DNA of 51,910 nucleotides, taken from contig CANQKV010000003.1 of assembly GCA_947624545.1 (NCBI GenBank), forward strand, positions 1 to 51,910, given 5' to 3'. This stretch comes from an uncultured Alphaproteobacteria bacterium (GTDB lineage: Bacteria > Pseudomonadota > Alphaproteobacteria > CAAHEQ01 > UBA3637). Positions 25,359 through 40,282 of the stretch are shown piece by piece. The notes under the pieces are model-generated. The model did no database searches and was not told the origin of the DNA. It was given only the letters and a program-made list of their open reading frames with translations. Position numbers and translations under genes: made by a program. Numbering within the stretch: the stretch's first letter is position 1; the number at the start of each line of letters is the position of its first letter.

Positions 25359-26042
25359 ATGAGACGAAGAAGTACGCTGAGAAGAGCTGCAAATGTTGTA
25401 TTTTCACCGAGGGGAAAAATGGCAGAATTATTTACGATTGTATGGTGCCACAATACTGAAATGTTGGCAAAACGTATTGCTCAAAAAGCAAATCTGAATG
25501 TTCAAGACGGTTTGGGTGATACATTATTAATAAAATCAATTATGCGTGGTTTTGATGATATGGCTCAATTATTGATTGATGCCGGTTGTCGGTTAGATAC
25601 GCAAAATATGCGCGGTGATACCGCTTTAATCGTTGCCGCCAAATATCAGAATGAAAAAATGGTGCGGGTGTTGGCAAAAGCCGGTGCCGATATTGATATT
25701 TGCAATGAACATCTTCAAACGGTCAATGATTTCGTCAGAGAGGAAGAAACCATTCGTTTGTTAGAACAAATTCGTAATTCGGAAAAAGGGCGCCCCGTCA
25801 GAGAACTTAAAGAGTTGGTCTGTAACGGTCCGGCAACAAAGATTATGAAACAATTTGAAACAAAAGAGTTTTTAACAAGCTTGCGTCTGTACGGTTTGTT
25901 TGCGGAAGCGTTTCAACAGTTGAATGTTGAAGAGATTGAAAAAACAAACGATACCATTAAAGGCAAAATTACACGGCGTGAACAGCTCAGCATTGATAAA
26001 GTTCGTTGGGCAAAACTGAAAGCCGAAAAATCGCACTTTTGA
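25359..26042 (+). CDS. Ankyrin-repeat protein
   Basis: NLNVQDGLGDTLL, LLIDAG, GDTALIVAA, LAKAGADIDI; TTGACT...TAGAAT promoter upstream. Confidence 0.85.
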   Translation: MRRRSTLRRAANVVFSPRGKMAELFTIVWCHNTEMLAKRIAQKANLNVQDGLGDTLLIKSIMRGFDDMAQLLIDAGCRLDTQNMRGDTALIVAAKYQNEKMVRVLAKAGADIDICNEHLQTVNDFVREEETIRLLEQIRNSEKGRPVRELKELVCNGPATKIMKQFETKEFLTSLRLYGLFAEAFQQLNVEEIEKTNDTIKGKITRREQLSIDKVRWAKLKAEKSHF

Positions 26043-26058
26043 TTTTGTTGTGATTGTT

Positions 26059-26092
26059 AAAAAAAAGCGGTCTTTATCAGATCGCTTTTTTT
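26059..26092. terminator. Bidirectional terminator
   Basis: A8-GCGGTCT-TTATC-AGATCGC-T7 between convergent genes. Confidence 0.75.
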
Positions 26093-26119
26093 ATAAATGC
26101 TTCAATTCAACCGCTTGTT

Positions 26120-26569
26120 TTAAATGCCGAAGAAAGCGTTTAAAAAGGAATTAAAAGAATCACCGATATAATCTAAAAATCGGGTTAATTGGCGTTCTGT
26201 TTTTTCTTCTGCCTGTTTCAAATGAACGGATTTTGCCTCTGATATTTTAAATGATGATGATTTTTTTAAAGGCGCCTGATGTGTTCCCGAACGGGCATGT
26301 AAAGCTTTTGAGGGCATTGGAGCAAATAAGAACGTATGGTGCGGCACCGTATTTTTGTAATGCGGTTGAATATTTAAAATTGATCCGTAAGAGTTTCGGT
26401 GTGTTTGATGTTGTGTAAAAACGGGGCTTTGGCGGCGGGTGTTTTTCTGATGATAAAACGGATGGGTATGCGCTGTGTGCGTAGTGTGCGTATTATGATA
26501 ATAATAAGGTCGGTTTGCCAAACAAAGCGGCGTGTATAATAAAATTAAAAGAATAAGAATAAAACGCAT
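26120..26569 (-). CDS. Hypothetical exported His-rich protein
   Basis: Signal-peptide-like N-terminus, His/Thr-rich body; no family recognised. Confidence 0.55.
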   Translation of the reverse strand: MRFILILLILLYTPLCLANRPYYYHNTHTTHTAHTHPFYHQKNTRRQSPVFTQHQTHRNSYGSILNIQPHYKNTVPHHTFLFAPMPSKALHARSGTHQAPLKKSSSFKISEAKSVHLKQAEEKTERQLTRFLDYIGDSFNSFLNAFFGI

Positions 26570-26636
26570 AACTTACTATACAACAAAAAAAATAAAAAAG
26601 AAATAAGAAAATGAATTCGATTATAAAAATCCCCTG

Positions 26637-27689
26637 TTATTGATTTAAAAAGTTATCGTTTTGTGTCTTTTTTTGAAGTTGATCGGCAAATGACTGTAAT
26701 CGCATCAAAATTTCGTTAAAATCGGAGAATTGTTGTTGATTTTCTCTTTTGTTTTTTCGCTTTTCTTTCGGATCGAATGACAATACAGATCCTTTAAATT
26801 GATTGTCGGAAGAATGTGTCATCAGAACGGGTTGTGTTGTTCCTTTTTGTTTTTTCTTTTGCGGCGGATTTGGTTTTGAAAAATTGTTTAAGGGTTCCTC
26901 GATTGTTTTTTTCTTTTTAGCGTTTTTTTTGTAAGAATTCATAAATTTTATAAAATGTTGATTCTTTTGAAATTCCGGATGTGATGCTAAAAAGGCGTCG
27001 GGCGGTATCGGTTTTTTTAAAAATTGTTTGTCAAACGCAAGCGGATAATGCGTATCAAGCATTTTAAGCGGTGGAGGCAAAAAATATTCTTCGTCAACAA
27101 ATTTTAAGTTTTGATAAGGTTGTTCCTTTTCATTTGTGAGTGCTTCAACATATTCTTCATCATTTTGAATATTTTTGAAAGTCGAACGCGAACTTGTTGT
27201 ATCCAACAGCTGCCATTTTTTGTTGATTTGTACGGCATTCCAGGCATGCAATCCGCCAGGCGAAAATCCGTTTACAACAATAGCGTTCAGACCGGCACGT
27301 CGTGCCATATACACAAACAGTTTGGCAAAATGCCGACAAACGCCGGCACGTTTTTGAAAGGTATCTTGTGGCGTGTCTTTATAGCAATCATACATGCCAT
27401 CGGGTGTGAGAAGACAGTCGGTAAAAGGTTTGTCATTGGTATGTTCATATTTGGTTCGCAACTCATAGTCATCGTAGAGAATATTTAAAGAAATCCAAAC
27501 ATAAATAACACGCGTTGTCAACAGTTCGTCACCCTGAAACGGTCTTGTGAGATAATCGGTTAAGGTGTTTAAATCGTGGGTATATTTATCAGGCACGTTC
27601 ATAGCATGTTTATCCGCCCGCGAATAGACGGCATAACTCCAAACGGGAAAGGAATAAAGCAAGAAAAAAAAGAAAAGAATATACCGCAT
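26637..27689 (-). CDS. Transglutaminase-like domain protein
   Basis: Triad GVCRHFA / HAWNAV / LDTT; signal peptide from ATG 27689 (start uncertain). Confidence 0.85.
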   Translation of the reverse strand: MRYILFFFFLLYSFPVWSYAVYSRADKHAMNVPDKYTHDLNTLTDYLTRPFQGDELLTTRVIYVWISLNILYDDYELRTKYEHTNDKPFTDCLLTPDGMYDCYKDTPQDTFQKRAGVCRHFAKLFVYMARRAGLNAIVVNGFSPGGLHAWNAVQINKKWQLLDTTSSRSTFKNIQNDEEYVEALTNEKEQPYQNLKFVDEEYFLPPPLKMLDTHYPLAFDKQFLKKPIPPDAFLASHPEFQKNQHFIKFMNSYKKNAKKKKTIEEPLNNFSKPNPPQKKKQKGTTQPVLMTHSSDNQFKGSVLSFDPKEKRKNKRENQQQFSDFNEILMRLQSFADQLQKKTQNDNFLNQ

Positions 27690-27726
27690 CAATTCATTAT
27701 ACAAAATATATGCAGACAATGCAAGG

Positions 27727-28941
27727 TTATTTTAAAGATCCCTTATCAGCTCTGAATGCGGGAATATAAAGCATATCACAGAGCAGGGCGGTTGAATAAC
27801 CGATTATTAATGCCGTTGCCGGATTGGTTAAGTCGGCAACATAACCGACAAATGTTGTTCCCAACGTATAAAAAACACAAATAAACATTGAGAAAATGGA
27901 AAGCAACGTACCGCGCTCTTTTTCGGAAACAATATTTTGCATATATGTGCAGGAAGCAGGGGTATAAATGCCGTTGGCACCTGATCCGAGCGTTTTAAAA
28001 AACGGGGCAAAAAAATTGGAGAAAAGGGCTGATGTGATGCAAAAAAGATTATCGGCGCATGCCCCGAAGAAAATGGTTTTTTTAAGACCGATTAAATGTC
28101 CGACTTTGCCTGACAGCCAACTGCAAACAGCGTCTGTCATATGCCCGGCAAAGCGGAAAATTCCCAATGACCAAACAGGAATGATTTCTTTATAAAAATT
28201 GCTGCCGAAGGTAAAAGTCGCTTCGTTGACGGCAAAATGCGCCGAATCGGCAAGCATATAAAGAGAGAGCCTTTTTTCACGATATAAATAACGTAGCGCC
28301 GAAAAAAAATGTTTGAAAGGATTCGTAAAAGTTTGTCGGCAATTTGTTTCCGTTAAAAACAAACTGATTATAAAGGCAAGAGTCATCGGAAAGATAGTGG
28401 CAATCATTGCCGTTTTCATGGAAAAATAAACAAAAATACCGCTTAAAAGCGATCCCAAAGCTAATCCTACGGAGGGATAAATTTTAACATGCGATAAAAC
28501 CGTATGGTATTCGGATTTTCGTCCCAATTTTTCCATACTTTCATAAACAAGGGCATCATTGTTGGCATTGCCGATTCCCCGATATATGCCGAAAAATAAA
28601 CTGCCGATGATTAAAAGTTCGTAAGACGGCGCAAATGCATAAATGATTGCCGCAATCACGCGACAGGCAGCGCCCGTGATGCACACTTTTTTCCGCCCCC
28701 ATGAATCGGCTAAAACGCCTAACGGTAAACTGCATAAAGTACCGGTTGCGTAAGCAATGGCATATATGCTCATTGCTTTGGTAAAGTTCCCTGTAATTTG
28801 TGCAAAAAAAATGGCTTCAATCGGCAATGAAAAAAACATTTTTGTACACAAATAATAAAGGCAAATTAACCGTATGTTTCGTTCATAAGGCGAAAAAGAA
28901 GTCAGCTTAAAAAATGAAAATAATGCCGTTATTTTTTGCAT
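27727..28941 (-). CDS. MFS transporter
   Basis: About 12 TM helices, motif A GVLADSWGRK. Confidence 0.92.
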   Translation of the reverse strand: MQKITALFSFFKLTSFSPYERNIRLICLYYLCTKMFFSLPIEAIFFAQITGNFTKAMSIYAIAYATGTLCSLPLGVLADSWGRKKVCITGAACRVIAAIIYAFAPSYELLIIGSLFFGIYRGIGNANNDALVYESMEKLGRKSEYHTVLSHVKIYPSVGLALGSLLSGIFVYFSMKTAMIATIFPMTLAFIISLFLTETNCRQTFTNPFKHFFSALRYLYREKRLSLYMLADSAHFAVNEATFTFGSNFYKEIIPVWSLGIFRFAGHMTDAVCSWLSGKVGHLIGLKKTIFFGACADNLFCITSALFSNFFAPFFKTLGSGANGIYTPASCTYMQNIVSEKERGTLLSIFSMFICVFYTLGTTFVGYVADLTNPATALIIGYSTALLCDMLYIPAFRADKGSLK

Positions 28942-29036
28942 ATTGCTTTTTTATCCTCTTTTAACAGATTTTGCAATAACTTTTTTACTTGCTTCTTCCT
29001 TTTTTTTCTCTTAATCTGAAAAGAGAAAGGTTAAAA

Positions 29037-29192
29037 ATGAAGCAAAGAATAATTTTTATCTGCGGAAAAGTGCTTTTAATCGGAATGATATGCAGCGTTT
29101 TCGGTATGTGTCGATATTCTGTGCCGATGAATAAAGCATGGAGCGCCTCTTATTTATCCGAACACGTTCACACGAAGGGGTTTCACAAATAA
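29037..29192 (+). CDS. Possible small membrane/exported protein (51 aa)
   Basis: GAAAGG RBS, hydrophobic N-terminal segment, fills the gap between the MFS gene and the large membrane-protein gene. Confidence 0.35.
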   Translation: MKQRIIFICGKVLLIGMICSVFGMCRYSVPMNKAWSASYLSEHVHTKGFHK

Positions 29193-29207
29193 AGCCGATG
29201 AGGAGCT

Positions 29208-31535
29208 TTATTTATGAATACGTCGCCGATTTTTACGCTTGTTGGCTTTGTCATTCTGATTGTTTTCTTCATGAACGACTTTTGCGTTATTTTCATTTGA
29301 AGCGTTATCGGCAACCGCCGCATTGTTTGCTTTATCCGCATTTTGAGCGTTGTTACCTTTATCTGCATTTTGAGCATTATCGGCAGCCGCATTGTTTGCT
29401 TTATCCGCATTTTGAGGATTGTTGCCTTTATCCGCATTTTGAGCGTTATCGGCTTTATTCGCATTTTGAGCGTTGTTACCTTTATCCGCATTTTGAGGAT
29501 TGTTGTCGGCTTTTTGAGAATTGTTTTCCTCTTTGGCAGCAGGCTCCTTGTCCTTTTTCTTTTGCGGTTCAACCCGATGATCAACCTGATGATACCGTCC
29601 GTCGCTTTCCTTTTGGAAATATTCTTCACCGTATTTATCCCATCTTAAATTTAACGCAACATCATCAAAATCCAAAATGGTAGCATAATCGGTAAACTTA
29701 TTATCAACATTCCGATACAAGCGATAAGGAGATGTTTGTACCAATGTGTCTGTCCAATATTTATGCGTAACGGGAATCTCGACTTTCTTGAAGTTTTCTT
29801 GTTCCTGTGCGAGCGCTTCATCATATTCCAAGATTTGGAAACCGTCAATGTTTTTAATTTTGCTCTTAATTATTTCCACACTCGGATTCAGTTTTGCCGC
29901 TTCATCAATTCGCTTGGAAAGATCCGAATCGATTAAGTAGAAATATTCTTTAAACGGTACAAATCCCGCTAAAATATTTTCACGAACCTGGTTGACCAAT
30001 TTTTCGGTTTTCGATGAGGGTCGATTTAAAAAGCCGTAGTTCACGTTTTTATTATGGCGTATTGCCCAACGCCACATATCACGATAATTATCGTTATGCG
30101 CAAAGATAAAAACGTTTTTGTATTGTTTATCCAAGCGATCCCATTCTTCCGATTTAAACGGATGGGTTATCGTGTAGGGGTGACGAATATAATCGGATTT
30201 TCCTTTATAGTTCGGATATAAATCCCAAATTTGAACGACAAGCAAAAACGGTAACAGCAGATAAGCAAATTGCGGAAAAGTTTTTCCTGCCGTTTTAATC
30301 AGGAAAAATGCCAATAAATACCATATCGGCCAGAAGAAACGTCCGGAATAGCGGAAAACACTGCCGATCCAATCAATAATCGGACCGGGATTATAATCAA
30401 CTAAAACCAGTGTGCCGTATTTAACCTGACTGGATAAAGAATAAATGAAAAAACCTGCCAATAATAAAGCAATCAGCGCATTTTTCTTTAAGTTTTCCAT
30501 TTTGAAAAGATGCTTGATATGCGGAAAGAACATAATCAACAAAATCAATAAGCCGAATCCGAAATAATTGTCGGCATCAAAATCGTCTTTCAGTCTGGGT
30601 GTTATTGCTGAAAAAACACGTGATTGACTCCAAATCGGATTAAATAAGGCTGCTAAATTTAAGCCGAACAAGCGCCAACCGCCACTGGTTAATACTTGTT
30701 CTTTTTCAACCATACCCAACAAGTAAAACCAGAACAGAAACACACACGCCAGGCAAGTTATGCCCCAAAGAATCGTGCCGAGTCGCACTTCTTTATCAAA
30801 CCAATATTTTTTCAAAATTAAAATGAAAAAGAAACCGCCGACCATCGGTAAAAAGTAGGGGCAAGTCAACGTGGCAAGCGAAAGAATAATGCCCATTGCC
30901 AACCATTCGTTTTTTGTCAGCTTATCGTTTAACCATAAATAAATTGCCCATAATAATATAAATTGACACATAAGGTTAATGTGAACAAAAACGCGCATCA
31001 GCATAATCGGCGCGGTAACGAAAAACAAAGCGCCGATAATAACTAAAAACTTGTTTTTAAAGGCTTTTCTGAAAATTAAAACCGAAAAAACAGCTTGCAA
31101 CGTATAGCTGATTAACATCCAAATACCCACAAACTGTGTTTCGGCAGAAAGTCCGAAAAACTTATGAAATACCTTAAAAATAAGAGAAAGCAAGGGGCTG
31201 CCGTCCGTTCCGTGAACGGAAATGCCGTAAGGATATGCCAGATTCATATGTGTAAAAATCGGCCATCGCCATTCATCCAATCGATAAAAAACACTGCCTA
31301 AATATGAAACCGTAAAATCACCGCCCACAAGAACGAAATCTGTATTATAAACGTCCAGAACGGTAAAACCGAACATAACGAAAAAGGCGATTAAGGTCAG
31401 TCCTACCGTCACGATCATATCGCAGTTGGGATAAATAAAATTTATCAGCTTCGAATAAAATCGACCCAATTTTGTGTTTTGATTTTCCCGAAATTTAAAA
31501 CGGAAGAGCTTTGATGTATCCAGAACAATTTTCAT
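29208..31535 (-). CDS. Polytopic membrane protein, DUF6311/GT-C glycosyltransferase-like, with C-terminal HxxW module and repeat tail
   Basis: GGD...WRWP...YPYG...TDGSPL, FRYSGRFFWP, YFGFG, VQIWDL; more than 10 TM helices. Confidence 0.7.
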   Translation of the reverse strand: MKIVLDTSKLFRFKFRENQNTKLGRFYSKLINFIYPNCDMIVTVGLTLIAFFVMFGFTVLDVYNTDFVLVGGDFTVSYLGSVFYRLDEWRWPIFTHMNLAYPYGISVHGTDGSPLLSLIFKVFHKFFGLSAETQFVGIWMLISYTLQAVFSVLIFRKAFKNKFLVIIGALFFVTAPIMLMRVFVHINLMCQFILLWAIYLWLNDKLTKNEWLAMGIILSLATLTCPYFLPMVGGFFFILILKKYWFDKEVRLGTILWGITCLACVFLFWFYLLGMVEKEQVLTSGGWRLFGLNLAALFNPIWSQSRVFSAITPRLKDDFDADNYFGFGLLILLIMFFPHIKHLFKMENLKKNALIALLLAGFFIYSLSSQVKYGTLVLVDYNPGPIIDWIGSVFRYSGRFFWPIWYLLAFFLIKTAGKTFPQFAYLLLPFLLVVQIWDLYPNYKGKSDYIRHPYTITHPFKSEEWDRLDKQYKNVFIFAHNDNYRDMWRWAIRHNKNVNYGFLNRPSSKTEKLVNQVRENILAGFVPFKEYFYLIDSDLSKRIDEAAKLNPSVEIIKSKIKNIDGFQILEYDEALAQEQENFKKVEIPVTHKYWTDTLVQTSPYRLYRNVDNKFTDYATILDFDDVALNLRWDKYGEEYFQKESDGRYHQVDHRVEPQKKKDKEPAAKEENNSQKADNNPQNADKGNNAQNANKADNAQNADKGNNPQNADKANNAAADNAQNADKGNNAQNADKANNAAVADNASNENNAKVVHEENNQNDKANKRKNRRRIHK
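29305..29518 (-). repeat. Intragenic ~27-bp tandem repeat encoding NADK(G/A)NN(A/P)Q
   Basis: Repeated TTTATCCGCATTTTGAG cores on the + strand; about 6-7 imperfect units. Confidence 0.9.
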
Positions 31536-31665
31536 TTTTTCCCCTCTTGTTTCAGTGTGATTAAAAGTTAGTTTTCTTTTTATACCATATTTTATAAAAT
31601 ATCAATAAAAAAATATGTTTTTTTTAAAAAAAATATGTTTCGTGCCGAATAAAGGGGCGGCACAC

Positions 31666-31698
31666 AAAAAAACCGCTCTCGAAAGGAAAGCGGTTTTT
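31666..31698 (-). terminator. Rho-independent terminator after ferredoxin
   Basis: AAAACCGCT...AGCGGTTTTT hairpin. Confidence 0.7.
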
Positions 31699-31716
31699 AT
31701 AAATGTTATTAAAGAG

Positions 31717-31953
31717 TTATGCTTTCGGCCATTCGGCAGATTGTCGAGCATTAAACTCAATCCACTTGTCATCGGCCTCATCGGAAGAGGAGATGGCACC
31801 TTGCGGACATTCGGAAATACAAACACCACATTCAATGCAATCATCGGGATTCACAACCACTTGCGAATCACCTTCATGAAAAGCGCCAACAGGGCATACT
31901 TCCGTACAACTCTTACATAAAACACATTTATCACCATTAACAACTGACGGCAT
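31717..31953 (-). CDS. Dicluster 4Fe-4S ferredoxin
   Basis: Two CxxCxxCxxxCP motifs; GGAGG RBS. Confidence 0.95.
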   Translation of the reverse strand: MPSVVNGDKCVLCKSCTEVCPVGAFHEGDSQVVVNPDDCIECGVCISECPQGAISSSDEADDKWIEFNARQSAEWPKA

Positions 31954-32091
31954 AATTCCTCCTTTTTTTATTGTTGTTACGATTTAAAAACTCTTATCAC
32001 AGAAAATAAAATTAAGCAAGTCTTTTTTTCATATTTTTGTATTTTTTAAGTCATTTTAATAAAATAAGGCAATTACCGAAATGAAAGTCGG

Positions 32092-32916
32092 TTATAATTC
32101 GGGTTTTAAATCGGAAGGAGTATCCCAATATTTTTCTTTTTCGTGAACGGGCATATACAATACGTTATATGTTTGCACCTGATATCCGAGCGGGTTTGTG
32201 CTGGACGGAATGCCGTTTTGATTGATTCGAATAATCACGCGAAAGCGTTGGCGTGCCAAAGCATTTTGTGTTTTGCATTCAATACATGTCTTTGAGTTGT
32301 CTTCACACGGGCAAAGCGGATTAAAAGCATTCGGAATGGGCATATCAAACGTATCAAACACGCCTTCCCACGTGTTTCCGTGAACGCGTTGTAATTCATA
32401 AATATGCACATCGCGGACAAAGCCTTTTGTTCGGGATTCGTTATACATTAAATCGGCTTCTGCCTGAAACGGCGCATAAACTTGTTTGTGATTGGAAAAT
32501 ACGGAAACGGGACCGGCGCTGCCCCACCGTTTTTGCATAGCCGCATTATCCCAAACAATTTCATTTCGATATTTAATATAGTCGCGTAAAATCGATTCGA
32601 TATACAAACGGCTTGCCGAAACGGTTATTTCTTCATATTCTGCCGGTAAAATAACTTTGCGCGACGAATCAATGGTATATAAATTGACGGCACGGCGATT
32701 GGCAATGGATATATCAACACGATCGGCGGAATAAATGACAAATGAGGCAATTAAAATGGTTAAAGCAATATTGATTATAATAATTACCGCCAGAAAACGC
32801 GCTGTTTTCATATACCGCCGTTCGGGCAGGGCTTTAACTTGCATATATTCGGGATAAGCACCTAACACATCGGGCGAATTCGTATTTTTCGGTGCAAATA
32901 AAAACCCTAGACGCAT
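32092..32916 (-). CDS. VirB8/TrbF-like bitopic membrane protein
   Basis: Single TM, LRDYIKYR helix, C-terminal NPLGYQVQTY matching the VirB8 NPxG motif. Confidence 0.65.
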   Translation of the reverse strand: MRLGFLFAPKNTNSPDVLGAYPEYMQVKALPERRYMKTARFLAVIIIINIALTILIASFVIYSADRVDISIANRRAVNLYTIDSSRKVILPAEYEEITVSASRLYIESILRDYIKYRNEIVWDNAAMQKRWGSAGPVSVFSNHKQVYAPFQAEADLMYNESRTKGFVRDVHIYELQRVHGNTWEGVFDTFDMPIPNAFNPLCPCEDNSKTCIECKTQNALARQRFRVIIRINQNGIPSSTNPLGYQVQTYNVLYMPVHEKEKYWDTPSDLKPEL

Positions 32917-32928
32917 TTTCTCCTCTTT

Positions 32929-33384
32929 TTAATAATAATTTTTTGCGGCGCTTGTGTTTTTGCTGAGTGAAACATCGAAAATCACTTCTGTGCCGTTCAG
33001 TGAAGAAGAACCAAGCAAAATCATTGCGACACGGTTATCTTTGGCATACGTTAAATAACTGTTGGTTGCGCGAATACTTGTCAACTCCTGCCAGCCGAAT
33101 TTCGGCATTTCCTGCATATAAAAATCAAACATATTCGCTTGATTATACGGCACTTTAAAAGCCAATCGACCGATGAGCGGATCATTGCCGAACAATAATG
33201 TTTTATCCAAACTCATGGTTGCGTTTTCGGGAATGGGAATCTCGCGAAATTGCGCAAAATTAGGGGTTGATTGCATGACGCCGTTTTCAAATGTGTTTTC
33301 TGACTTAAATGAAGGTTGAATGCTTTCATTGTGACAAGCACTCAAAAAAACAAAACTGCTTAAAATAAAAAGTATTGCGCGCAT
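32929..33384 (-). CDS. Putative lipoprotein
   Basis: Lipobox LSA-C; FREIPIP and FY...MPKFGW motifs. Confidence 0.75.
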   Translation of the reverse strand: MRAILFILSSFVFLSACHNESIQPSFKSENTFENGVMQSTPNFAQFREIPIPENATMSLDKTLLFGNDPLIGRLAFKVPYNQANMFDFYMQEMPKFGWQELTSIRATNSYLTYAKDNRVAMILLGSSSLNGTEVIFDVSLSKNTSAAKNYY

Positions 33385-33490
33385 TTTTTATCCTTTCGTA
33401 ATTTAAGAATAAAATAAACTTAAAAATAAATCAAGAGATTTTTATAGAAATCGGCGTTTAAAAAAGCTTTTCTTCATTCAAAAAAGGTAT

Positions 33491-33525
33491 AAAAAAACCT
33501 CTTCCCGAAAAAGAGAAGAGGCTTT
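33491..33525 (-). terminator. Rho-independent terminator after pal
   Basis: CCTCTTC...GAAGAGG stem followed by a T run on the - strand. Confidence 0.7.
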
Positions 33526-33536
33526 GTTTTGAAATT

Positions 33537-34031
33537 TTAATAAGCAACCGTTGTGGCACTTCTGTTTTGAGCCCAAGCTTCTTCGGAGGAACCCAAAACG
33601 ACCGGACGTTCTTTACCGTAAGAGATAACCCGAATCCGATCAGATGAAATACCTTGCGCCATTAAGTAATTGCGCGCTGCCATGGCACGACGTTCTCCTA
33701 ATGCCAGGTTGTATTCGCGTGTGCCGCGTTCATCGCAACGACCTTCAATTACAACTAAAACCCGGGGATGATCAGCCAACCATTTTGCTTGTTCAGCCAA
33801 GTTTTGGCGCGCATCGGCCGTTAAATCGGAACTGTCTAACAAGAAATACACAACACTCGGTGTTTCATCGCGGAACTTTTGTGTGTTTTCCGTTTCTTGT
33901 AAATCGGCGATATTGACATCATCATTCCAACCGCCGTTGCCGTTACCGTATAAATCGGCACCGTCTTTTTTTGTTGCACAAGCACTCAACAGCGACATTG
34001 CGCAAATTAAAGCAAATAATTTTTTAAACAT
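33537..34031 (-). CDS. pal: Peptidoglycan-associated lipoprotein (OmpA-like domain)
   Basis: Lipobox LSA-C; DERGTREYNLALGERRA, ISYGKERP, WAQNR; start ATG 34031 after GAGG. Confidence 0.93.
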   Translation of the reverse strand: MFKKLFALICAMSLLSACATKKDGADLYGNGNGGWNDDVNIADLQETENTQKFRDETPSVVYFLLDSSDLTADARQNLAEQAKWLADHPRVLVVIEGRCDERGTREYNLALGERRAMAARNYLMAQGISSDRIRVISYGKERPVVLGSSEEAWAQNRSATTVAY

Positions 34032-34220
34032 TTTTTCCTCTTTCATTGATAAAGTTTTCGGCGGCGTTTTGGCGTTTGGGGATATATTAAACATCAATTT
34101 ATTCCGTTTGGCGTTCAGCGTCGCGTTTTCGATTGTATCAAAACATAAAGGCGATTGAAAGTCAAGGTTTTTTTTCAAAAACGGGATATAAATATGAAAA
34201 AAATTTGAAAACAGGTGTTT

Positions 34221-35411
34221 TTATTGAATGCCTTTTTGATATTTTAATTGATTTCCGTCGTTTTCTTTTATAAATACTTCCGTGCCGTAATGATCCCATT
34301 TAATCGTGACGGTCTCATTATCTTCACGGATGATTTTGCCTGTTTCTTCCGGTATATCCACGCGATAAAAGTTTTTTTTGTCTTTAAAGCGAATCCAATC
34401 TGTCCAATTCGGATGAGAGACAAAAATATCATCTTTTAATATTTTGTTTTTAACACACGAAAAATCATAAGCTTTTTTCAAAACAGTCTGATTGAGTATT
34501 TTTAATTTTTCATTTGATTCGATCATTTTTTGATAAATGAGACATTTATGTTCCGTACTCACATACATGCTTAACCAATTATACGGCACATCTTCCCAAA
34601 AAGGCTTAATTTTTTCCAGTTGAATTTGTTTATATGATTCATTTTGAATTCTGTGATATGAAGGGGGACGTTCGACATTTTTAACATAGCCGAAATACAA
34701 AAGTTTTTCATTGATTTTTGTTATTTTACCGCCTTTGTTTAAAATATCTTTCCATAAACCGCTGTCTTCGGCGTATAAATATTTCGGGTTATATCGTAAA
34801 TGATGCTTATTTAAGAAATCACGACGCATCATAACGGTCGGATGCACAACACCCGATGTAAAATAAGTACTTAAAGCAATTTCATCGGGCGAACTCAGTC
34901 GGGGCGGTGTCAGCGGTTTTCCCGGCTCGATATCCGATCGGTATATATCGCCGCCCAACACGACAATATCGGGATTTTCATTCATTGCCCATACTTGCCG
35001 TTCCAACCGATACGAAACGGATTTGTCGTCATCGTCCATACGGGCAATATATTTACCGCGTGCTTTATCCAATCCGCGATTGAGCGAATAAATCAGCCCT
35101 TGATTGATTTCATTTTTTAAAGGTTTAATGCGCGAATCTTTTTTTGCGTAATTTTGAATTATTTTCCATGTTCTGTCGGTTGAACCGTCATCGATAATAA
35201 TGAATTCGAAATCTTTAAATGTTTGTTGCAGAATCGATTCAATGGCGGTCGGCAAAGCATGTTCGCGATTGAAAGTTGACATCACGACGGAAACTTCGGG
35301 CTGATGTTTCAAATGTTCAATAAAATCATGCGGATTAAAGTATTGTCTCGATAGAAAACCCGATAGAAAAACAAAAATCAAGCTGATAATAAAATAAACT
35401 GTTTTCTTCAT
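34221..35411 (-). CDS. Glycosyltransferase family 2 with N-terminal TM anchor and C-terminal HxxW module
   Basis: VSVVMSTFN, IIIDDGSTD, ARMDDDD, HPTVMMR, AED. Confidence 0.93.
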   Translation of the reverse strand: MKKTVYFIISLIFVFLSGFLSRQYFNPHDFIEHLKHQPEVSVVMSTFNREHALPTAIESILQQTFKDFEFIIIDDGSTDRTWKIIQNYAKKDSRIKPLKNEINQGLIYSLNRGLDKARGKYIARMDDDDKSVSYRLERQVWAMNENPDIVVLGGDIYRSDIEPGKPLTPPRLSSPDEIALSTYFTSGVVHPTVMMRRDFLNKHHLRYNPKYLYAEDSGLWKDILNKGGKITKINEKLLYFGYVKNVERPPSYHRIQNESYKQIQLEKIKPFWEDVPYNWLSMYVSTEHKCLIYQKMIESNEKLKILNQTVLKKAYDFSCVKNKILKDDIFVSHPNWTDWIRFKDKKNFYRVDIPEETGKIIREDNETVTIKWDHYGTEVFIKENDGNQLKYQKGIQ

Positions 35412-35442
35412 GGAAAGAACTTCGTAAAATTATTTTGTCTTC

Positions 35443-36630
35443 TTATTGAATTCTCCACCGTTTTCCGCCGTTTTCTTTGGTAAACACTTCCGTACCGTAG
35501 TGATCCCATTTGATTGTGACGGTCTTATCATCTTCATGAGTGATTTTACCTGTTTCGGTCGGGATATTTAAACGGACAATCGTTTTATCTTTGGGATTGA
35601 CATAAATAAAGTCATTCCAGAATTTGTGAATGGTTTTGATTGCACCTGCCATCAATTCATTTTTTGTGCAAACAGCCTTTTTCCTCTTTTCAAGTATATC
35701 CTGATTTAAAATATGTAATTGCTCATTTTTTTGAACCATATTTGTGAGAATGATACACTTGTCTGTATTGTTGTTGAAGGCGCCCAATATTTCATAAGGT
35801 GCATCGAAAAAAGGCGCTAATTTTTCTTTTTGAACTAATTTAAACGTTTCACCTTGAATATAGCGATATTTGTCCGGATGCGTAACGTTTTTGATATATC
35901 CGAGATATAATAAGCCCTCGTCAAGTGAAGAAATTTTACCGCCTTTATTCAAGATATCCTTATAAAGACCGGTATCTTCGGCATAGAGATATTTGGAATT
36001 ATATCGAATGTGATGTTTTTCCAAAAAGTCACGCCGAATCATAATGGTCGGATGTGCCAGTGCTGAAGAAAAATAAGTGTTGATGGCAATTTCATCCGGA
36101 TCATTAATCAAGGGATAAGAATGTAACCGTTTCGGAACGGCATCGGCGTTTAAGATAGCTGTGCCCAACACGACAATATCGGGATTTTCTTCCATTGCCC
36201 ATACTTGCCGTTCCAATCGATACGAAACGGATTTGTCGTCATCGTCCATACGGGCAATATATTTACCGCGTGCTTTATCCAATCCGCGATTAAGGGAATA
36301 AATCAAACCTTTGTTTTTTTCGTTTTTAAGGGGAACAATGCGTTTATCCTTTTTCGCATAAGATTGAATAAGTTTCCATGTATTGTCGGTTGAACCGTCA
36401 TCGATGATAATAAATTCAAAATCTTCAAATGTTTGTTGAAGAATCGATTCAATGGCGGTCGGCAAAGCGTGTTCACGATTGAAAGTTGACATTATAACGG
36501 AAACGACAGGCTTGTGGAAAAGATGATAAATAGACGGAAATAATAACTTTTCACTAAATATTCCGGCACAAAAAACGACGATTGTATATAAAATACCGAT
36601 GAGTGCTCTCATGATTTTTGATTTTTTCAT
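35443..36630 (-). CDS. Glycosyltransferase family 2 (paralog of the adjacent gene)
   Basis: Same GT-A motifs; start ATG 36630 after GAGGGG. Confidence 0.93.
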   Translation of the reverse strand: MKKSKIMRALIGILYTIVVFCAGIFSEKLLFPSIYHLFHKPVVSVIMSTFNREHALPTAIESILQQTFEDFEFIIIDDGSTDNTWKLIQSYAKKDKRIVPLKNEKNKGLIYSLNRGLDKARGKYIARMDDDDKSVSYRLERQVWAMEENPDIVVLGTAILNADAVPKRLHSYPLINDPDEIAINTYFSSALAHPTIMIRRDFLEKHHIRYNSKYLYAEDTGLYKDILNKGGKISSLDEGLLYLGYIKNVTHPDKYRYIQGETFKLVQKEKLAPFFDAPYEILGAFNNNTDKCIILTNMVQKNEQLHILNQDILEKRKKAVCTKNELMAGAIKTIHKFWNDFIYVNPKDKTIVRLNIPTETGKITHEDDKTVTIKWDHYGTEVFTKENGGKRWRIQ

Positions 36631-36694
36631 ATTCCCCTCACATAAATAATAATGTTTTTTTCTAGCATACTCCGAATAAAAAAGCAATAAAAAA

Positions 36695-38560
36695 TTAATG
36701 AATGGGAAAAAGAAAATTGTTTTCATAAAATTGAATCGGCACAACGGCATAATAAAAAGTGGCAGGAATTATGGCACGATAAACTTCTTCGCCTTTATTC
36801 AAACGCATGACAATCGTATTTCCACGGGTGCGATTATGTTCAATCGGAACGGTGGTTGCCGATACCCAAATTTCCTTTGTCACGGGATGAATATAAACAA
36901 GGGATCCCATTTCGGCATGAAAGTTTAAATCTTTCAGAAAAAGCTGATGAACGGTTCGTTTTTTATCATTGATTTTATAAATTGAGGCATATGAATTTTT
37001 TGTTGTTTTAAGCTTTTTATCGAATAATTCACCGGAATTGTCAAAAATAGAGTAAATCCCGTTGCCGGCATATAAAACATTATGTGTTTTTAAAGGCCAT
37101 TTAAAATCGGGAACGGTTTCGATTCCTTCTTGCACGGCTTGCGGATACGGTTTGCCGTTTTTGTCGACAACCGTTAAAACTTTATTTTTCAGTGAACCGT
37201 TTTTTCCGTTTCTGCCTGATTTATTCACTTGTTGATGCGGTGTAAACCACCACAGAAGCTTTTTTGTTTTTTCATCGATTTTGGCAATACCGAAGTGACG
37301 CCCCGATACAATAACGGCTTTGTTTTCGGCATCATAGGTAATGCCGTTGGTATGCGCCCAATCTATTTTATTATAATCATATTCCGTGGATTTGACAATT
37401 AACGATCGATCGGGATTAAGCATTTCCGCCAAATCATAACGTGCCACTTCTTTCCCCGTTTCATAATCTAACTCTAAAACAAAATCGCGATGAGTTGGCA
37501 AATTTTTCCCGTCAATAAGCGCCGTTGTGTTGTTAAATGAGCCGAAAACAAGCAAATTGCCGTTCGGTTTGTGTCCCATGCCGTGAACATAAGTGTAAAA
37601 ATTAGCAGGGTAAGAATAATGCTTTTCCAATTCGCCGAGCAGATTATAGCGATTAATGCCGTTTGGATATTCCGCAAAAATTTTATCTTTGAAAAAATAG
37701 GCATGATGTCCGTTAGGCAGGTTTAAAAAATAGCGTAAATGTCCTTTTTCATCATAAACATCGCCATTGTATGAAGCGTAATAATAAAATTGATTGTCTG
37801 TTTTGCGCTGAACAAACCATTGCGTTGTTAAAGGAATATTTCCCGTTTGAACGTGAACGGTATTTTTTTGAATGGATTTATCTTCAAATTCCGCCGTAAT
37901 CGTTACGGTGTTTTCATAATTGGCATATAAGCCTAAAACAGGCAGAGAATGTTCGTTTTCAAAGGTAGGGAATGTATGAGTAATATCGGGCGAATCGTCT
38001 TTGCCGTGAATGGTTAAAGTAATACGGGCTTTTTGCTTTGTCGGAAACTTTATAAGTGCCGTCAGCGGAGCGATTTTATAGGGATTAACCAGAATAAACG
38101 GCTCTTTTAAAGAATAATCGAAGGAAGAATAGTTTTGCTCAATTTCTTCCGTTATCGGTGTGTTCAAAGTTTTTTGCAAAACATAAGAATTTTTTTTGTC
38201 AGATTGAATAAATATTTCCCAAGGCCATTTTTCCCATTTCACGATGATTTGATTGTCTTTAAAAACAACAAAGGCGCAGTCGTTGTATCCCGTGTTTCGG
38301 CAAAAGCGATTATTGACTATTTTAACCGTTTCGCGCCAGTATATATGTATTAAAGTGATTTGTAAATCATCGGATGATGAGTCGTTTTGTTGAGTTTTTG
38401 ATTCTTTATTCGGAAGAGGGGATTTGTCGGCATAGATATTGTCAATAACGGTCAAACTTCCGATGACGAGTGCTGCAACAAGCAATGTGATTGATAGAAA
38501 GCATAAAAACACGTGATGATGAATGATTTTGCATAAATCACTTTTTAGTTGTTTTGTCAT
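36695..38560 (-). CDS. Arylsulfate sulfotransferase (ASST) family protein
   Basis: NPYKIAPLTA, PVLGLY (Ig-like N-domain), DWAHTNGI, SGRH, HNV, FDN; N-terminal TM. Confidence 0.88.
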   Translation of the reverse strand: MTKQLKSDLCKIIHHHVFLCFLSITLLVAALVIGSLTVIDNIYADKSPLPNKESKTQQNDSSSDDLQITLIHIYWRETVKIVNNRFCRNTGYNDCAFVVFKDNQIIVKWEKWPWEIFIQSDKKNSYVLQKTLNTPITEEIEQNYSSFDYSLKEPFILVNPYKIAPLTALIKFPTKQKARITLTIHGKDDSPDITHTFPTFENEHSLPVLGLYANYENTVTITAEFEDKSIQKNTVHVQTGNIPLTTQWFVQRKTDNQFYYYASYNGDVYDEKGHLRYFLNLPNGHHAYFFKDKIFAEYPNGINRYNLLGELEKHYSYPANFYTYVHGMGHKPNGNLLVFGSFNNTTALIDGKNLPTHRDFVLELDYETGKEVARYDLAEMLNPDRSLIVKSTEYDYNKIDWAHTNGITYDAENKAVIVSGRHFGIAKIDEKTKKLLWWFTPHQQVNKSGRNGKNGSLKNKVLTVVDKNGKPYPQAVQEGIETVPDFKWPLKTHNVLYAGNGIYSIFDNSGELFDKKLKTTKNSYASIYKINDKKRTVHQLFLKDLNFHAEMGSLVYIHPVTKEIWVSATTVPIEHNRTRGNTIVMRLNKGEEVYRAIIPATFYYAVVPIQFYENNFLFPIH

Positions 38561-38710
38561 CGGTTACTGTTCCCCCCTCAAATCATTTGAATCGAAACAT
38601 AAGCGAATATCTTGATATTCTTTTTCAAAAAAAACTTACCATTCTTTATACTTAAAGTCAAGTTTTAAAAAACACTTTAAAAAATTTAACGGTAGTGCGT
38701 ATCATTTTGC

Positions 38711-38782
38711 TTGACAAATTTTAAAAGATAATATATAATCTATAAAAGATAAAAAATCGAAATAAGAGATAATATAATGTCT
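38711..38782 (+). promoter_or_regulatory. Consensus sigma70 promoter of hipBA with two AGAT-N8-RTCT operator-like sites
   Basis: TTGACA(38711)-17-TATAAT(38734); palindromes at 38726-38741 and 38767-38782. Confidence 0.65.
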
Positions 38783-39076
38783 ATTATGTTAAAAACGCCG
38801 GCGGAAATATCGCTGGAAATTGCACAGCGTGCCAAAACGGCACGATTAAATGCCAATTTATCCCAAAGCGGTTTAGCCGAAAGGTCGGGCGTGAGTTTAG
38901 GTTCGTTAAAGCGGTTTGAATCGACGGGACAAATCGCGCTGGAATCGCTTTTAAAAATTGCATTGACGCTGAATTGTCTGAATGAGTTTAACGCTTTGTT
39001 TTTAACGCCTGTTTCTCAAATTTCTTTATTTTCTCCGCATACCGAAAAAGTCCGAAAACGCGGGTTGTTAAAATAA
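38777..39076 (+). CDS. XRE-family HTH antitoxin (HipB-like)
   Basis: RLNANLSQSGLAERSGVSLGSLKRFE HTH; directly upstream of hipA. Confidence 0.88.
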   Translation: MSIMLKTPAEISLEIAQRAKTARLNANLSQSGLAERSGVSLGSLKRFESTGQIALESLLKIALTLNCLNEFNALFLTPVSQISLFSPHTEKVRKRGLLK

Positions 39077-39088
39077 AGCGGGGGAAGA

Positions 39089-40282
39089 ATGATTCGGTTG
39101 AATGTTTATTTGAATGCCTATCAAAAGCGTCAATTCGTCGGTGTTTTGGAACGGCGTGATCGCATTATGTTTGAATATGCGCCGACATTTTTAAAATCGG
39201 GCATTGAGTTGTCGCCGTTTATGTTACCGCTCAAAAGCGGTGTTTTTGTTGATAGCGAACAAACGTTTGACGGATTGTTCGGGCTTTTTAACGACAGTTT
39301 GCCCGACGGGTGGGGGTGTTTGCTTTTAGACAGATATTTGCAAAAGCAGGGTTTATCATATTATGCCATTAATCCGTTGCATCGGTTGTCCATTATCGGT
39401 TCGCAGGCAATGGGTGCGTTGGAATATGACCCGACGCCGACGCCGAATGATAATTGGAAAGATATTTTGCATTTGGATTCGTTATCCAAAGGAGCGGTAG
39501 AGATTATTCAGGGATCCAGTTCCGAATTGTTGGACAGATTAAAGGGTTTGAACGGATCGGCGGCAGGTGCGCGTCCGAAGATTGTGGCTTTGGTGTCAAG
39601 CGATTACAAAACCATTGTAAGCGGACGAATGGCAATGAAAGAATTTCAACCGTGGATTATTAAGTTTTCATCGAAATACGACAATCCGAATTTAGGGGCG
39701 TTGGAATATATTTATTCCGTTATGGCAAAAAAGGCGGGTGTGGATATGCCCGACACATATTTGTTTGAATCCAAGGAGTGTGCGGGACATTTCGGCGTGG
39801 CGCGATTTGATCGGCAAGGTGCCAACAAAATACACATACACAGTGCATGCGGCTTGTTACATGCTTCTCATCGAATGCCGACGTTGGATTATGAAAATCT
39901 GATGCGATTAACGGCGCATTTAACGCATGATATGCGTGAAGTGGAAAAAATGGTTCGGTTAATGATTTTTAACGTGAAAGCGGGCAACAAAGATGATCAC
40001 ACGAAAAACTTTTCCTATATGATGACGGCAGATTATCGGTGGAAAATGACGCCGGCGTATGACATAACACCCTCGGCGGGAATGAACGGGGAGCAAACGG
40101 CTATGGTAAACGGCAAAGGGCGGCACATTTTGAATGATGATTTAATTATGACAGCGCATTTGGCAGGCGTGAGTGAAGCCAAAACGAAGAAAATGATTGA
40201 AGAAGTGGAAGCGGCACTTTCCGATTTTCCGCGCTTATTAAAGGAATACGGCATTCAAACGAATCCGCGTGTTTATTTTTAA
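39089..40282 (+). CDS. hipA: HipA-family Ser/Thr kinase toxin
   Basis: DSLPDGWG, GSAAGARPK, IIKF, RFDR, GNKDDHTKNFS, PAYD. Confidence 0.95.
   Translation: MIRLNVYLNAYQKRQFVGVLERRDRIMFEYAPTFLKSGIELSPFMLPLKSGVFVDSEQTFDGLFGLFNDSLPDGWGCLLLDRYLQKQGLSYYAINPLHRLSIIGSQAMGALEYDPTPTPNDNWKDILHLDSLSKGAVEIIQGSSSELLDRLKGLNGSAAGARPKIVALVSSDYKTIVSGRMAMKEFQPWIIKFSSKYDNPNLGALEYIYSVMAKKAGVDMPDTYLFESKECAGHFGVARFDRQGANKIHIHSACGLLHASHRMPTLDYENLMRLTAHLTHDMREVEKMVRLMIFNVKAGNKDDHTKNFSYMMTADYRWKMTPAYDITPSAGMNGEQTAMVNGKGRHILNDDLIMTAHLAGVSEAKTKKMIEEVEAALSDFPRLLKEYGIQTNPRVYF

Follow-up and report, generated by a model that had tools for sequence, protein, structure and literature searches.

A small mobile beta module on glycan enzymes of an uncultured alphaproteobacterium, with a possible role in binding envelope polymers

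In a stretch of 51,910 nucleotides (nt) from an uncultured alphaproteobacterium (contig CANQKV010000003.1 of assembly GCA_947624545.1, hereafter the window), four genes on the minus strand encode envelope-associated proteins that share one short segment: a polytopic membrane protein of the DUF6311 family, two family 2 glycosyltransferases that we term GT2a and GT2b, and an arylsulfotransferase (ASST). We find that this segment is a real and mobile domain, a new family of the familiar accessory-module kind that is nameless in the libraries searched. The reading that we prefer, with a probability of about 0.45, is that of a non-catalytic binding module that tethers glycan enzymes to an envelope polymer. 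The source assembly comprises 1.26 Mb in 91 contigs, of which the window is contig C3, and is 77% complete.

A preliminary description of the window had quoted one peptide from each of the four proteins, and all four were located on the minus strand, at residues 590-642 of the DUF6311 protein (29610-29768), 332-382 of GT2a (34266-34418), 374-425 of GT2b (35476-35631) and 71-119 of the ASST (38204-38350). In pairwise BLASTP comparisons a GT2 matched the DUF6311 protein with an E-value of ~1e-5, while the pairs that include the ASST yielded merely 0.04-0.16. These weak pairs are settled by leave-one-out hidden Markov models (HMMs), run against 14,213 six-frame open reading frames (ORFs) of the source genome, which recover each member. 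The profile built without the ASST retrieved this protein at E 7.4e-4, with the following noise match at 0.21, and the one built without the DUF6311 protein retrieved the latter at E 1.2e-8; a profile of the ASST and the DUF6311 protein in turn found GT2b at E 3.7e-4 and GT2a at E 6.5e-4. Mutual recovery in profile searches had been set beforehand as the test of the proposal, and the four segments are confirmed as copies of one domain, beyond chance. Note that GT2a and GT2b are paralogous along their entire length, with 62% identity, so that the window offers three independent contexts for the module rather than four.

The position of the module differs among its hosts. In GT2a (34221..35411, PF00535 E 2.1e-37) an N-terminal hydrophobic anchor (residues 2-24, 35340..35408) is followed by the GT-A domain, by an antiparallel helical hairpin (residues 286-321, 34449..34556) and by the module at the C-terminus (34233..34457, profile E 2.1e-29). 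The paralogue GT2b (35443..36750 as the longest ORF, PF00535 E 9.4e-37) likewise ends in a module copy (35446..35670, profile E 3.8e-28). As its longest ORF overlaps the stop codon of the ASST gene by 56 nt, and relatives align from an ATG at 36630, this ATG is probably the true start of GT2b. Both proteins belong to the GT2 (GT-A) family as judged by their PF00535 matches at E ~1e-37 and by the acidic, DxD-type residues D75, D126, D128 and D129, which are invariant in 22 relatives. In the ASST (36695..38560, 621 amino acids (aa)), a sulfotransferase independent of 3'-phosphoadenosine 5'-phosphosulfate (PAPS), the module is N-terminal, just past the membrane anchor and ahead of an Ig-like domain (38171..38389, profile E 1.6e-26), and it contains a pair of cysteines at module columns 32 and 40. 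Its assignment to this enzyme class, which combines an Ig-like N domain with a six-bladed propeller, rests on matches to PF05935 (Arylsulfotrans, E 8.6e-46) and PF17425 (Arylsulfotran_N, E 5.5e-24) and on the retention of key residues: in the alignment to E. coli AssT (3elq, E 3.5e-28), which as printed does not extend to Thr501, residues His252, His356, Asn358, Arg374 and His436 are aligned and conserved. According to PMC13426309, His436 is the catalytic residue and the other four bind the sulfuryl group.

The fourth host, the DUF6311 protein (29208..31535, 775 aa), has PF19830 as its sole domain match (E 1.2e-19) and no sequence relative in the PDB, and the term DUF6311 occurs in 0 papers in our literature search. 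Read by eye, its hydrophobicity and charge pattern indicates 11 transmembrane (TM) helices with an acidic first loop. The label GT-C-like that the preliminary description gave to this protein is a tentative one; enzymes of that class have a polytopic membrane domain with an acidic first outer loop and use a lipid-linked sugar donor. The module lies in the C-terminal part predicted to be periplasmic (29577..29807, profile E 3.7e-27), and a low-complexity tail of ~130 aa extends beyond it. This tail, rich in N, A, D, K and Q, is encoded by a tandem repeat at 29320-29505 (27 nt in 7.3 copies, alternatively 69 nt in 2), and both its length and its sequence vary among relatives.

The four-segment profile found four more copies outside the window: a third GT2 (contig C21) ends in two tandem copies and a fourth (C64) in a single one, and the last copy belongs to a stand-alone protein of 104 aa (C12) that consists of an N-terminal hydrophobic anchor and the module. 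The genome total is thus 8 module copies in 7 proteins, and the neighbors of the additional copies are housekeeping genes. The copies within this one genome are just 16-52% identical. In the eight-copy alignment residues W19, R33, W55, E61 and F63 are invariant, and the module consensus reads I.[LVI].HP.W.D...R.[YC]R...[DE][CY][AG].[IV][LIV]...[LI].[ILV]KWD.WG.E.F.[KR]..DG.Y. A fifth anchored GT2 on the minus strand of contig C61 (1058-2167) has a cysteine pair in its hairpin and a C-terminus that resembles a degenerate module lacking both tryptophans. Genome-wide there are 20 matches to Glycos_transf_2 (e.g. C14:5143-5532, C61:1655-2077 and C10:26153-26575), an unusually high number for an assembly of this size and completeness.

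An AlphaFold (AF2) model of the module is an all-beta fold of ~65 residues in seven strands, with a mean predicted local distance difference test score (pLDDT) of 85.9, in keeping with the autonomous, aromatic-rich beta module that had been proposed. The full-length model of GT2a (pLDDT 90.4, predicted template modeling score 0.79) comprises a helix at residues 2-24, the GT-A domain at 40-240, two helices at 286-303 and 308-321, and the strands of the module at 329-391. In a Foldseek search of the PDB the closest structures to this full model were RmlT, TarS and TarP, with E ~1e-16 to 1e-17. The module alone retrieved nothing from the PDB at E<=0.001 and found no match among the BFVD viral models (best E 0.22), and a sequence profile search of the PDB yielded nothing under E 0.97. 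From the ESM Atlas no usable match was obtained for the 104-aa protein, and for P0019 the best score was 0.76.

Searches for a family name gave a consistent picture. In the host proteins of the window the shared segment lies outside all Pfam matches, hmmscan of the eight copies against Pfam-A at E<=10 produced two unrelated noise matches (0.03 and 0.06), and the module matches in NCBIfam r20 at E<=1 all stayed far under the cut-offs. Precomputed annotations, which draw on Pfam versions newer than our local copy, likewise leave the module of the GT2 and ASST proteins unassigned. That no named family had been recognized for the segment in the preliminary description is thus borne out for Pfam-A, NCBIfam and the PDB. 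One candidate name, PF25853, is a precomputed annotation on DUF6311 proteins (e.g. P0007 and relatives); it was rejected, as 15 of 16 distant, module-less DUF6311 proteins carry it and 13 module-bearing proteins are without it. The fusion of DUF6311 and module is limited to relatives of at least 43% identity, and more distant DUF6311 proteins are devoid of the module. In our word searches, which cannot prove absence from print, the module was described neither in work on GT-A enzymes of the periplasm that have lectin domains nor in work on the export of GT80 sialyltransferases.

In order to assess the extent of the family, the profile was run against 1.84 billion representative proteins, where 350 clusters fell within E<=0.001; of these, 89 reached E<=1e-10 and 4 reached E<=1e-30. 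The matching proteins are 77 to 1547 aa long and contain between one and six matched stretches, and a local hmmsearch delineated 246 module instances in 163 proteins. Across the family the module stands at the N- or the C-terminus, within the chain, or in arrays with as many as 5-6 copies, in agreement with the mobile domain that had been suggested.

A census of partner domains was made on 149 listed representatives, 90 taken at E<=1e-5 and 59 at E<=1e-8. A Pfam partner is present in 76 of these, and in 69 of the 76 it is a glycan enzyme, from at least 14 families, which bears out the proposed tie of the module to glycan enzymes. Counted such that one protein may appear under several families, the partners are GT2 (38 proteins), GT31 (6), GT10 and cytidylyltransferases of the CMP-sugar type (5 each), GT8 (4), GT32-like proteins and ASST (3 each), GT6, GT4, the PM0188 sialyltransferases of family GT80 and pyruvyl transferases (2 each), and DUF4422, FkbM methyltransferase and DUF6311 (1 each), along with ankyrin repeats (5) and Ser/Thr kinases (2). 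The seven partnered representatives that are not glycan enzymes are ankyrin proteins and transmembrane kinases. In the latter, the PknB-type Ser/Thr kinases P0118 and P0125, module arrays fill the ectodomain, the usual place of PASTA repeats. The other 73 representatives are without a Pfam family, and many of them are proteins of ~100 aa made up of an anchor and the module.

Within the genus, the module was found in 18 of 18 sampled congeners with 1-14 matches apiece, and a further congener has 9. Nineteen module-bearing ORFs taken from congeners comprise 7 GT2, 6 ASST and 4 PM0188-like proteins and 2 without a Pfam family, so that the module here sits on several ASST paralogues as well as on PM0188-like sialyltransferases. 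In two congeners (G001 and G016) a stand-alone form of ~108 aa is the only copy found, and the role of the module should accordingly not depend on other module-bearing enzymes. Two other genera of the same taxonomic family yielded no copy, nor did the other 397 sampled Alphaproteobacteria or 400 additional genomes from the phylum. Judged by amino-acid composition as a proxy, 20 of the 149 representatives stem from GC-rich sources, and other lineages must thus carry the module too. The closest related loci are from metagenome-assembled genomes of uncultured Alphaproteobacteria (CANREI01, CANPXT01, CANQUX01 and JAZUBA01).

The question on which side of the membrane the module resides is central for its function, and several lines of evidence point to the outside. 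ASSTs are described as periplasmic, PAPS-independent enzymes in PMC13426309. In the ASST and PM0188-like proteins of congeners (L026, L027 and L031) the module directly follows what by eye is a Sec signal peptide, and several of the 19 congener ORFs begin with a cleavable signal peptide of this kind, again by eye, ahead of the module or the transferase. The kinases P0118 and P0125 run from an N-terminal kinase domain through a transmembrane helix into the module. For the DUF6311 protein, a reading by eye according to the positive-inside rule finds the short K/R-rich loops all on one side, with the N-terminus inside and the C-terminal 333 aa outside.

The distribution of cysteines is in line with this placement. 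The beta3-beta4 loop of the module is flanked by columns 32 and 40. Among the 246 instances, 40 have cysteine in both columns, 16 in a single one and 190 in neither. The complete pair is found in 35 proteins, of which 28 have an N-terminal hydrophobic segment, 2 others a signal-like sequence and 1 neither of these, the remaining 4 being apparently truncated; in a second subfamily with a single cysteine at column 23, 0 of 21 proteins have an N-terminal hydrophobic segment. A further pair resides in the helical hairpin of the glycosyltransferases, where C290 and C319 are the only two cysteines of GT2a. These positions are cysteine in 42/42 and 41/42 proteins that combine GT2 and module, and they are absent from the GT2 paralogues of the same genome that lack both module and anchor. 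Of 16 complete GT2 ORFs in the genome, the four with a module all have an N-terminal anchor, versus 3 of the 12 without. DsbA-like genes are present in the genome. Based on export signals, on knowledge of the protein families and on co-varying cysteine pairs, we consider it likely that the module is outside the cytoplasm in this genus, and we would extend this, with somewhat less assurance, to the catalytic domains of the GT2 proteins.

A binding function is suggested by the company that the module keeps. With its discrete, non-catalytic fold in the AF2 model and its attachment to carbohydrate-active enzymes in the partner census, it resembles carbohydrate-binding modules (CBMs) and lectins in its architecture. 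Similar to CBMs and to wall-binding repeats such as SH3b, GW, LysM, SPOR and PASTA, it is a small, autonomous, often tandem beta domain without catalytic function on envelope or carbohydrate enzymes, and PASTA holds the same position in PknB-type kinases; it differs from all of these in that no Pfam match to them emerged at E<=10 and no clear fold match was obtained. A second parallel is found in the animal polypeptide GalNAc-transferases, type II-like enzymes with an N-terminal anchor, a GT-A domain and a C-terminal lectin of the ricin type, which guides them toward glycosylated acceptors. The architecture of anchor, GT-A and C-terminal non-catalytic beta domain is common to both, but the ricin-type lectin is a beta-trefoil of ~130 aa with an unrelated fold, the module has no Pfam ricin match, and the animal enzymes work in the Golgi lumen of eukaryotes, where donors are supplied by nucleotide-sugar transporters.

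In our preferred model, the module would act as a CBM- or lectin-like, non-catalytic binding domain that in this genus would be located on the extracytoplasmic side, held close to the inner membrane by an anchor. By binding one common polymer of the envelope, it would keep the exported or anchored GT2 enzymes, the PM0188-like transferases, the ASST and the DUF6311 protein in place, and tandem copies would provide added avidity. The ligand would most likely be a glycan, and peptidoglycan or a lipid-linked glycan are possible candidates.

Several observations speak against this model. The fold searches with the module brought no CBM or lectin, and W19, W55 and F63 may merely form a hydrophobic core. 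With respect to location, DsbB was not found in the 77% complete genome, and the counts of K and R around the N-terminal anchors of 84 proteins (more on the N side in 37, more on the C side in 28, a tie in 19) are undecided. The cysteine counts given above are not phylogenetically independent. A GT-A enzyme in the periplasm would have no obvious nucleotide-sugar donor. Moreover, the module occurs in large proteins without a hydrophobic segment, together with a CMP-sugar synthetase, GT10 or GT31 domain (P0027, P0028, P0033, P0087 and P0158); as these proteins should be cytoplasmic, the module is not restricted to one compartment.

The structural similarity of GT2a to TarS, TarP and RmlT raises the question whether the module might instead be a domain for oligomerization or scaffolding, its copies binding to each other like the C-terminal trimerization domains of TarS and TarP, with the 104-aa protein as a hub in the membrane. 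All three proteins are glycosyltransferases of wall teichoic acid and have the layout of the GT2a model, in which a GT-A (GT2) domain is joined through antiparallel helices to at least one small beta domain at the C-terminus. For TarS, PMC5156392 describes two antiparallel helices as the linker between the catalytic part and tandem CBM-like beta domains, which trimerize and aid processivity; the TarS domain may also bind the polymer (PMC5156392). The beta domains of this type have a CBM48/CBM68-like fold. The frequency of tandem arrays and the presence of the module on several enzymes of one cell would fit such a role. Note that the module alone retrieves none of these structures in fold searches, that it also occurs on enzymes other than GT2, at N-termini and in isolation, and that TarS is a cytoplasmic protein without an anchor. 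Mutual binding is further at odds with G001 and G016, where the stand-alone copy would be a hub without clients, with the low identity of the copies within one genome, and with the occurrence of the module in kinase ectodomains and on ankyrin proteins. A complex prediction for the GT2a module and the stand-alone module, carried out without controls, scored 0.00 and 0.00 and carries no weight either way. We consider a role in oligomerization unlikely, although it is the main alternative.

A further alternative places the module of the GT2 proteins in the cytoplasm. The anchor would be re-entrant or oriented with its N-terminus out, the GT-A domain and the module would sit at the inner face, where the latter would attach to the membrane or to a lipid-linked acceptor, and no disulfide would form between the cysteines. 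It is established that Leloir enzymes of family GT2 require cytoplasmic nucleotide sugars, and the GT-A fold begins only ~5-15 residues past the anchor. The undecided charge bias and the TM-less proteins with CMP-sugar synthetase domains can be read in the same way. In spite of these points we hold a cytoplasmic module on the GT2 proteins to be improbable: in ASSTs and kinases the module lies outside the membrane, the paired cysteines are confined to anchored or signal-bearing proteins, and the N-termini of the PM0188-like proteins from congeners resemble cleavable signal peptides.

The preliminary description had further proposed a single pathway for the module-bearing enzymes, in which the ASST, GT2a, GT2b and the DUF6311 protein would form one system for a sulfated surface glycan, with the module as a tag that recruits them to a shared intermediate. 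This idea, which is not exclusive of the other readings, draws on gene order. The succession ASST-GT2b-GT2a-Pal-hyp151-hyp274-DUF6311-MFS, all module-bearing genes being on the same strand, is kept in two related loci (L004 and L005) and, with one GT2, in a third (L006), and match coordinates indicate the order in G011, G015 and G017 as well. In addition, Cpz4, an enzyme of the ASST type, sulfates a sugar hydroxyl according to PMC13426309, although the same paper gives the usual acceptors of ASSTs as phenolic. However, Pal and two unrelated genes of high conservation break up the cluster, and in the more distant locus L007 the DUF6311 gene stands without ASST and GT2 genes, with only hyp151-hyp274-DUF6311 staying together. 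Module copies are present at four further, unrelated sites of the genome and on many ASST and PM0188-like paralogues of congeners, and no gene for a flippase, a polymerase or sugar-nucleotide synthesis was seen among the scanned ORFs of the window (most ORFs of at least 100 aa). As the module is not specific to the cluster and such genes are missing among the scanned ORFs, the shared module does not define a pathway, and a common sulfated-glycan system appears rather improbable. What stands of the proposal is the conserved adjacency of ASST and GT2 genes, which leaves a functional link possible.

Between the genomes of these loci the enzymes are 54-79% identical, and Pal and the two hypothetical proteins 85-95%, a pattern that fits fast-evolving surface functions within a housekeeping stretch. 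The two genes between Pal and the DUF6311 gene (32092-32916 and 32929-33384, minus strand) have no Pfam or NCBIfam match. The product of 274 aa has a CxC...CxxC cluster and a single TM helix, and that of 151 aa has a lipoprotein-like N-terminus. The two proteins are 85-95% identical in L004-L006 and retain 63% and 80% identity in L007, their genes still adjoining that for DUF6311. A toxin-antitoxin pair of HipB-like and HipA proteins (38777-40282, plus strand) lies immediately upstream of the ASST gene on the opposite strand; L005 has this pair as well, and none was seen in the remaining loci. On the far side the cluster is flanked by the genes for an ankyrin-repeat protein (25359-26042, plus strand), whose place is kept in L004-L006, and for a transglutaminase-like protein (26637-27719, minus strand), whose place is kept in L004 and L006. 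A scan for promoters and terminators across 26000-39200 remained at chance level (43 versus 41.9 and 15 versus 14.7 expected) and did not resolve the operon structure.

The weakest alternative, that the resemblance is a chance motif without a common domain, could cite the marginal BLASTP values of the ASST, but it is refuted by the leave-one-out recovery of every member far above noise, by the 350 clusters in the large protein library and by the confident, independent fold prediction.

The most interesting point, and one that remains unexplained, are the signal-bearing, cysteine-stapled transferases of the Leloir type; periplasmic Leloir glycosyltransferases, if they are real, would be the surprising part of this work. 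In its strongest form the proposition would be that the genus exports Leloir-type glycosyltransferases (GT2 and PM0188-like) and PAPS-independent sulfotransferases, each a type II-like or signal-peptide protein equipped with disulfide-stapled linkers and a lectin-like module, and that these glycosylate and sulfate the envelope or foreign glycans outside the cytoplasm with nucleotide sugars and aryl sulfates as donors from the surroundings instead of donors of the cell's own making. We regard this as doubtful. A search for TLC transporters gave no match, but the control genomes were equally silent, and NeuB was not found in the genome.

With 350 clusters and at least 14 partner families of glycan enzymes, the module would join the catalog of widespread accessory domains of carbohydrate-active enzymes. 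It would also give a handle for the annotation of the many proteins that at present appear as a GT2 with an unknown tail, and of hypothetical proteins of 100 aa. If the module is indeed extracytoplasmic on GT2 and PM0188-like proteins, then transferases that depend on nucleotide sugars act in a compartment that is thought to be free of such donors, and exported transferases of this kind, if confirmed, would have a bearing on how bacteria with reduced genomes decorate their surface.

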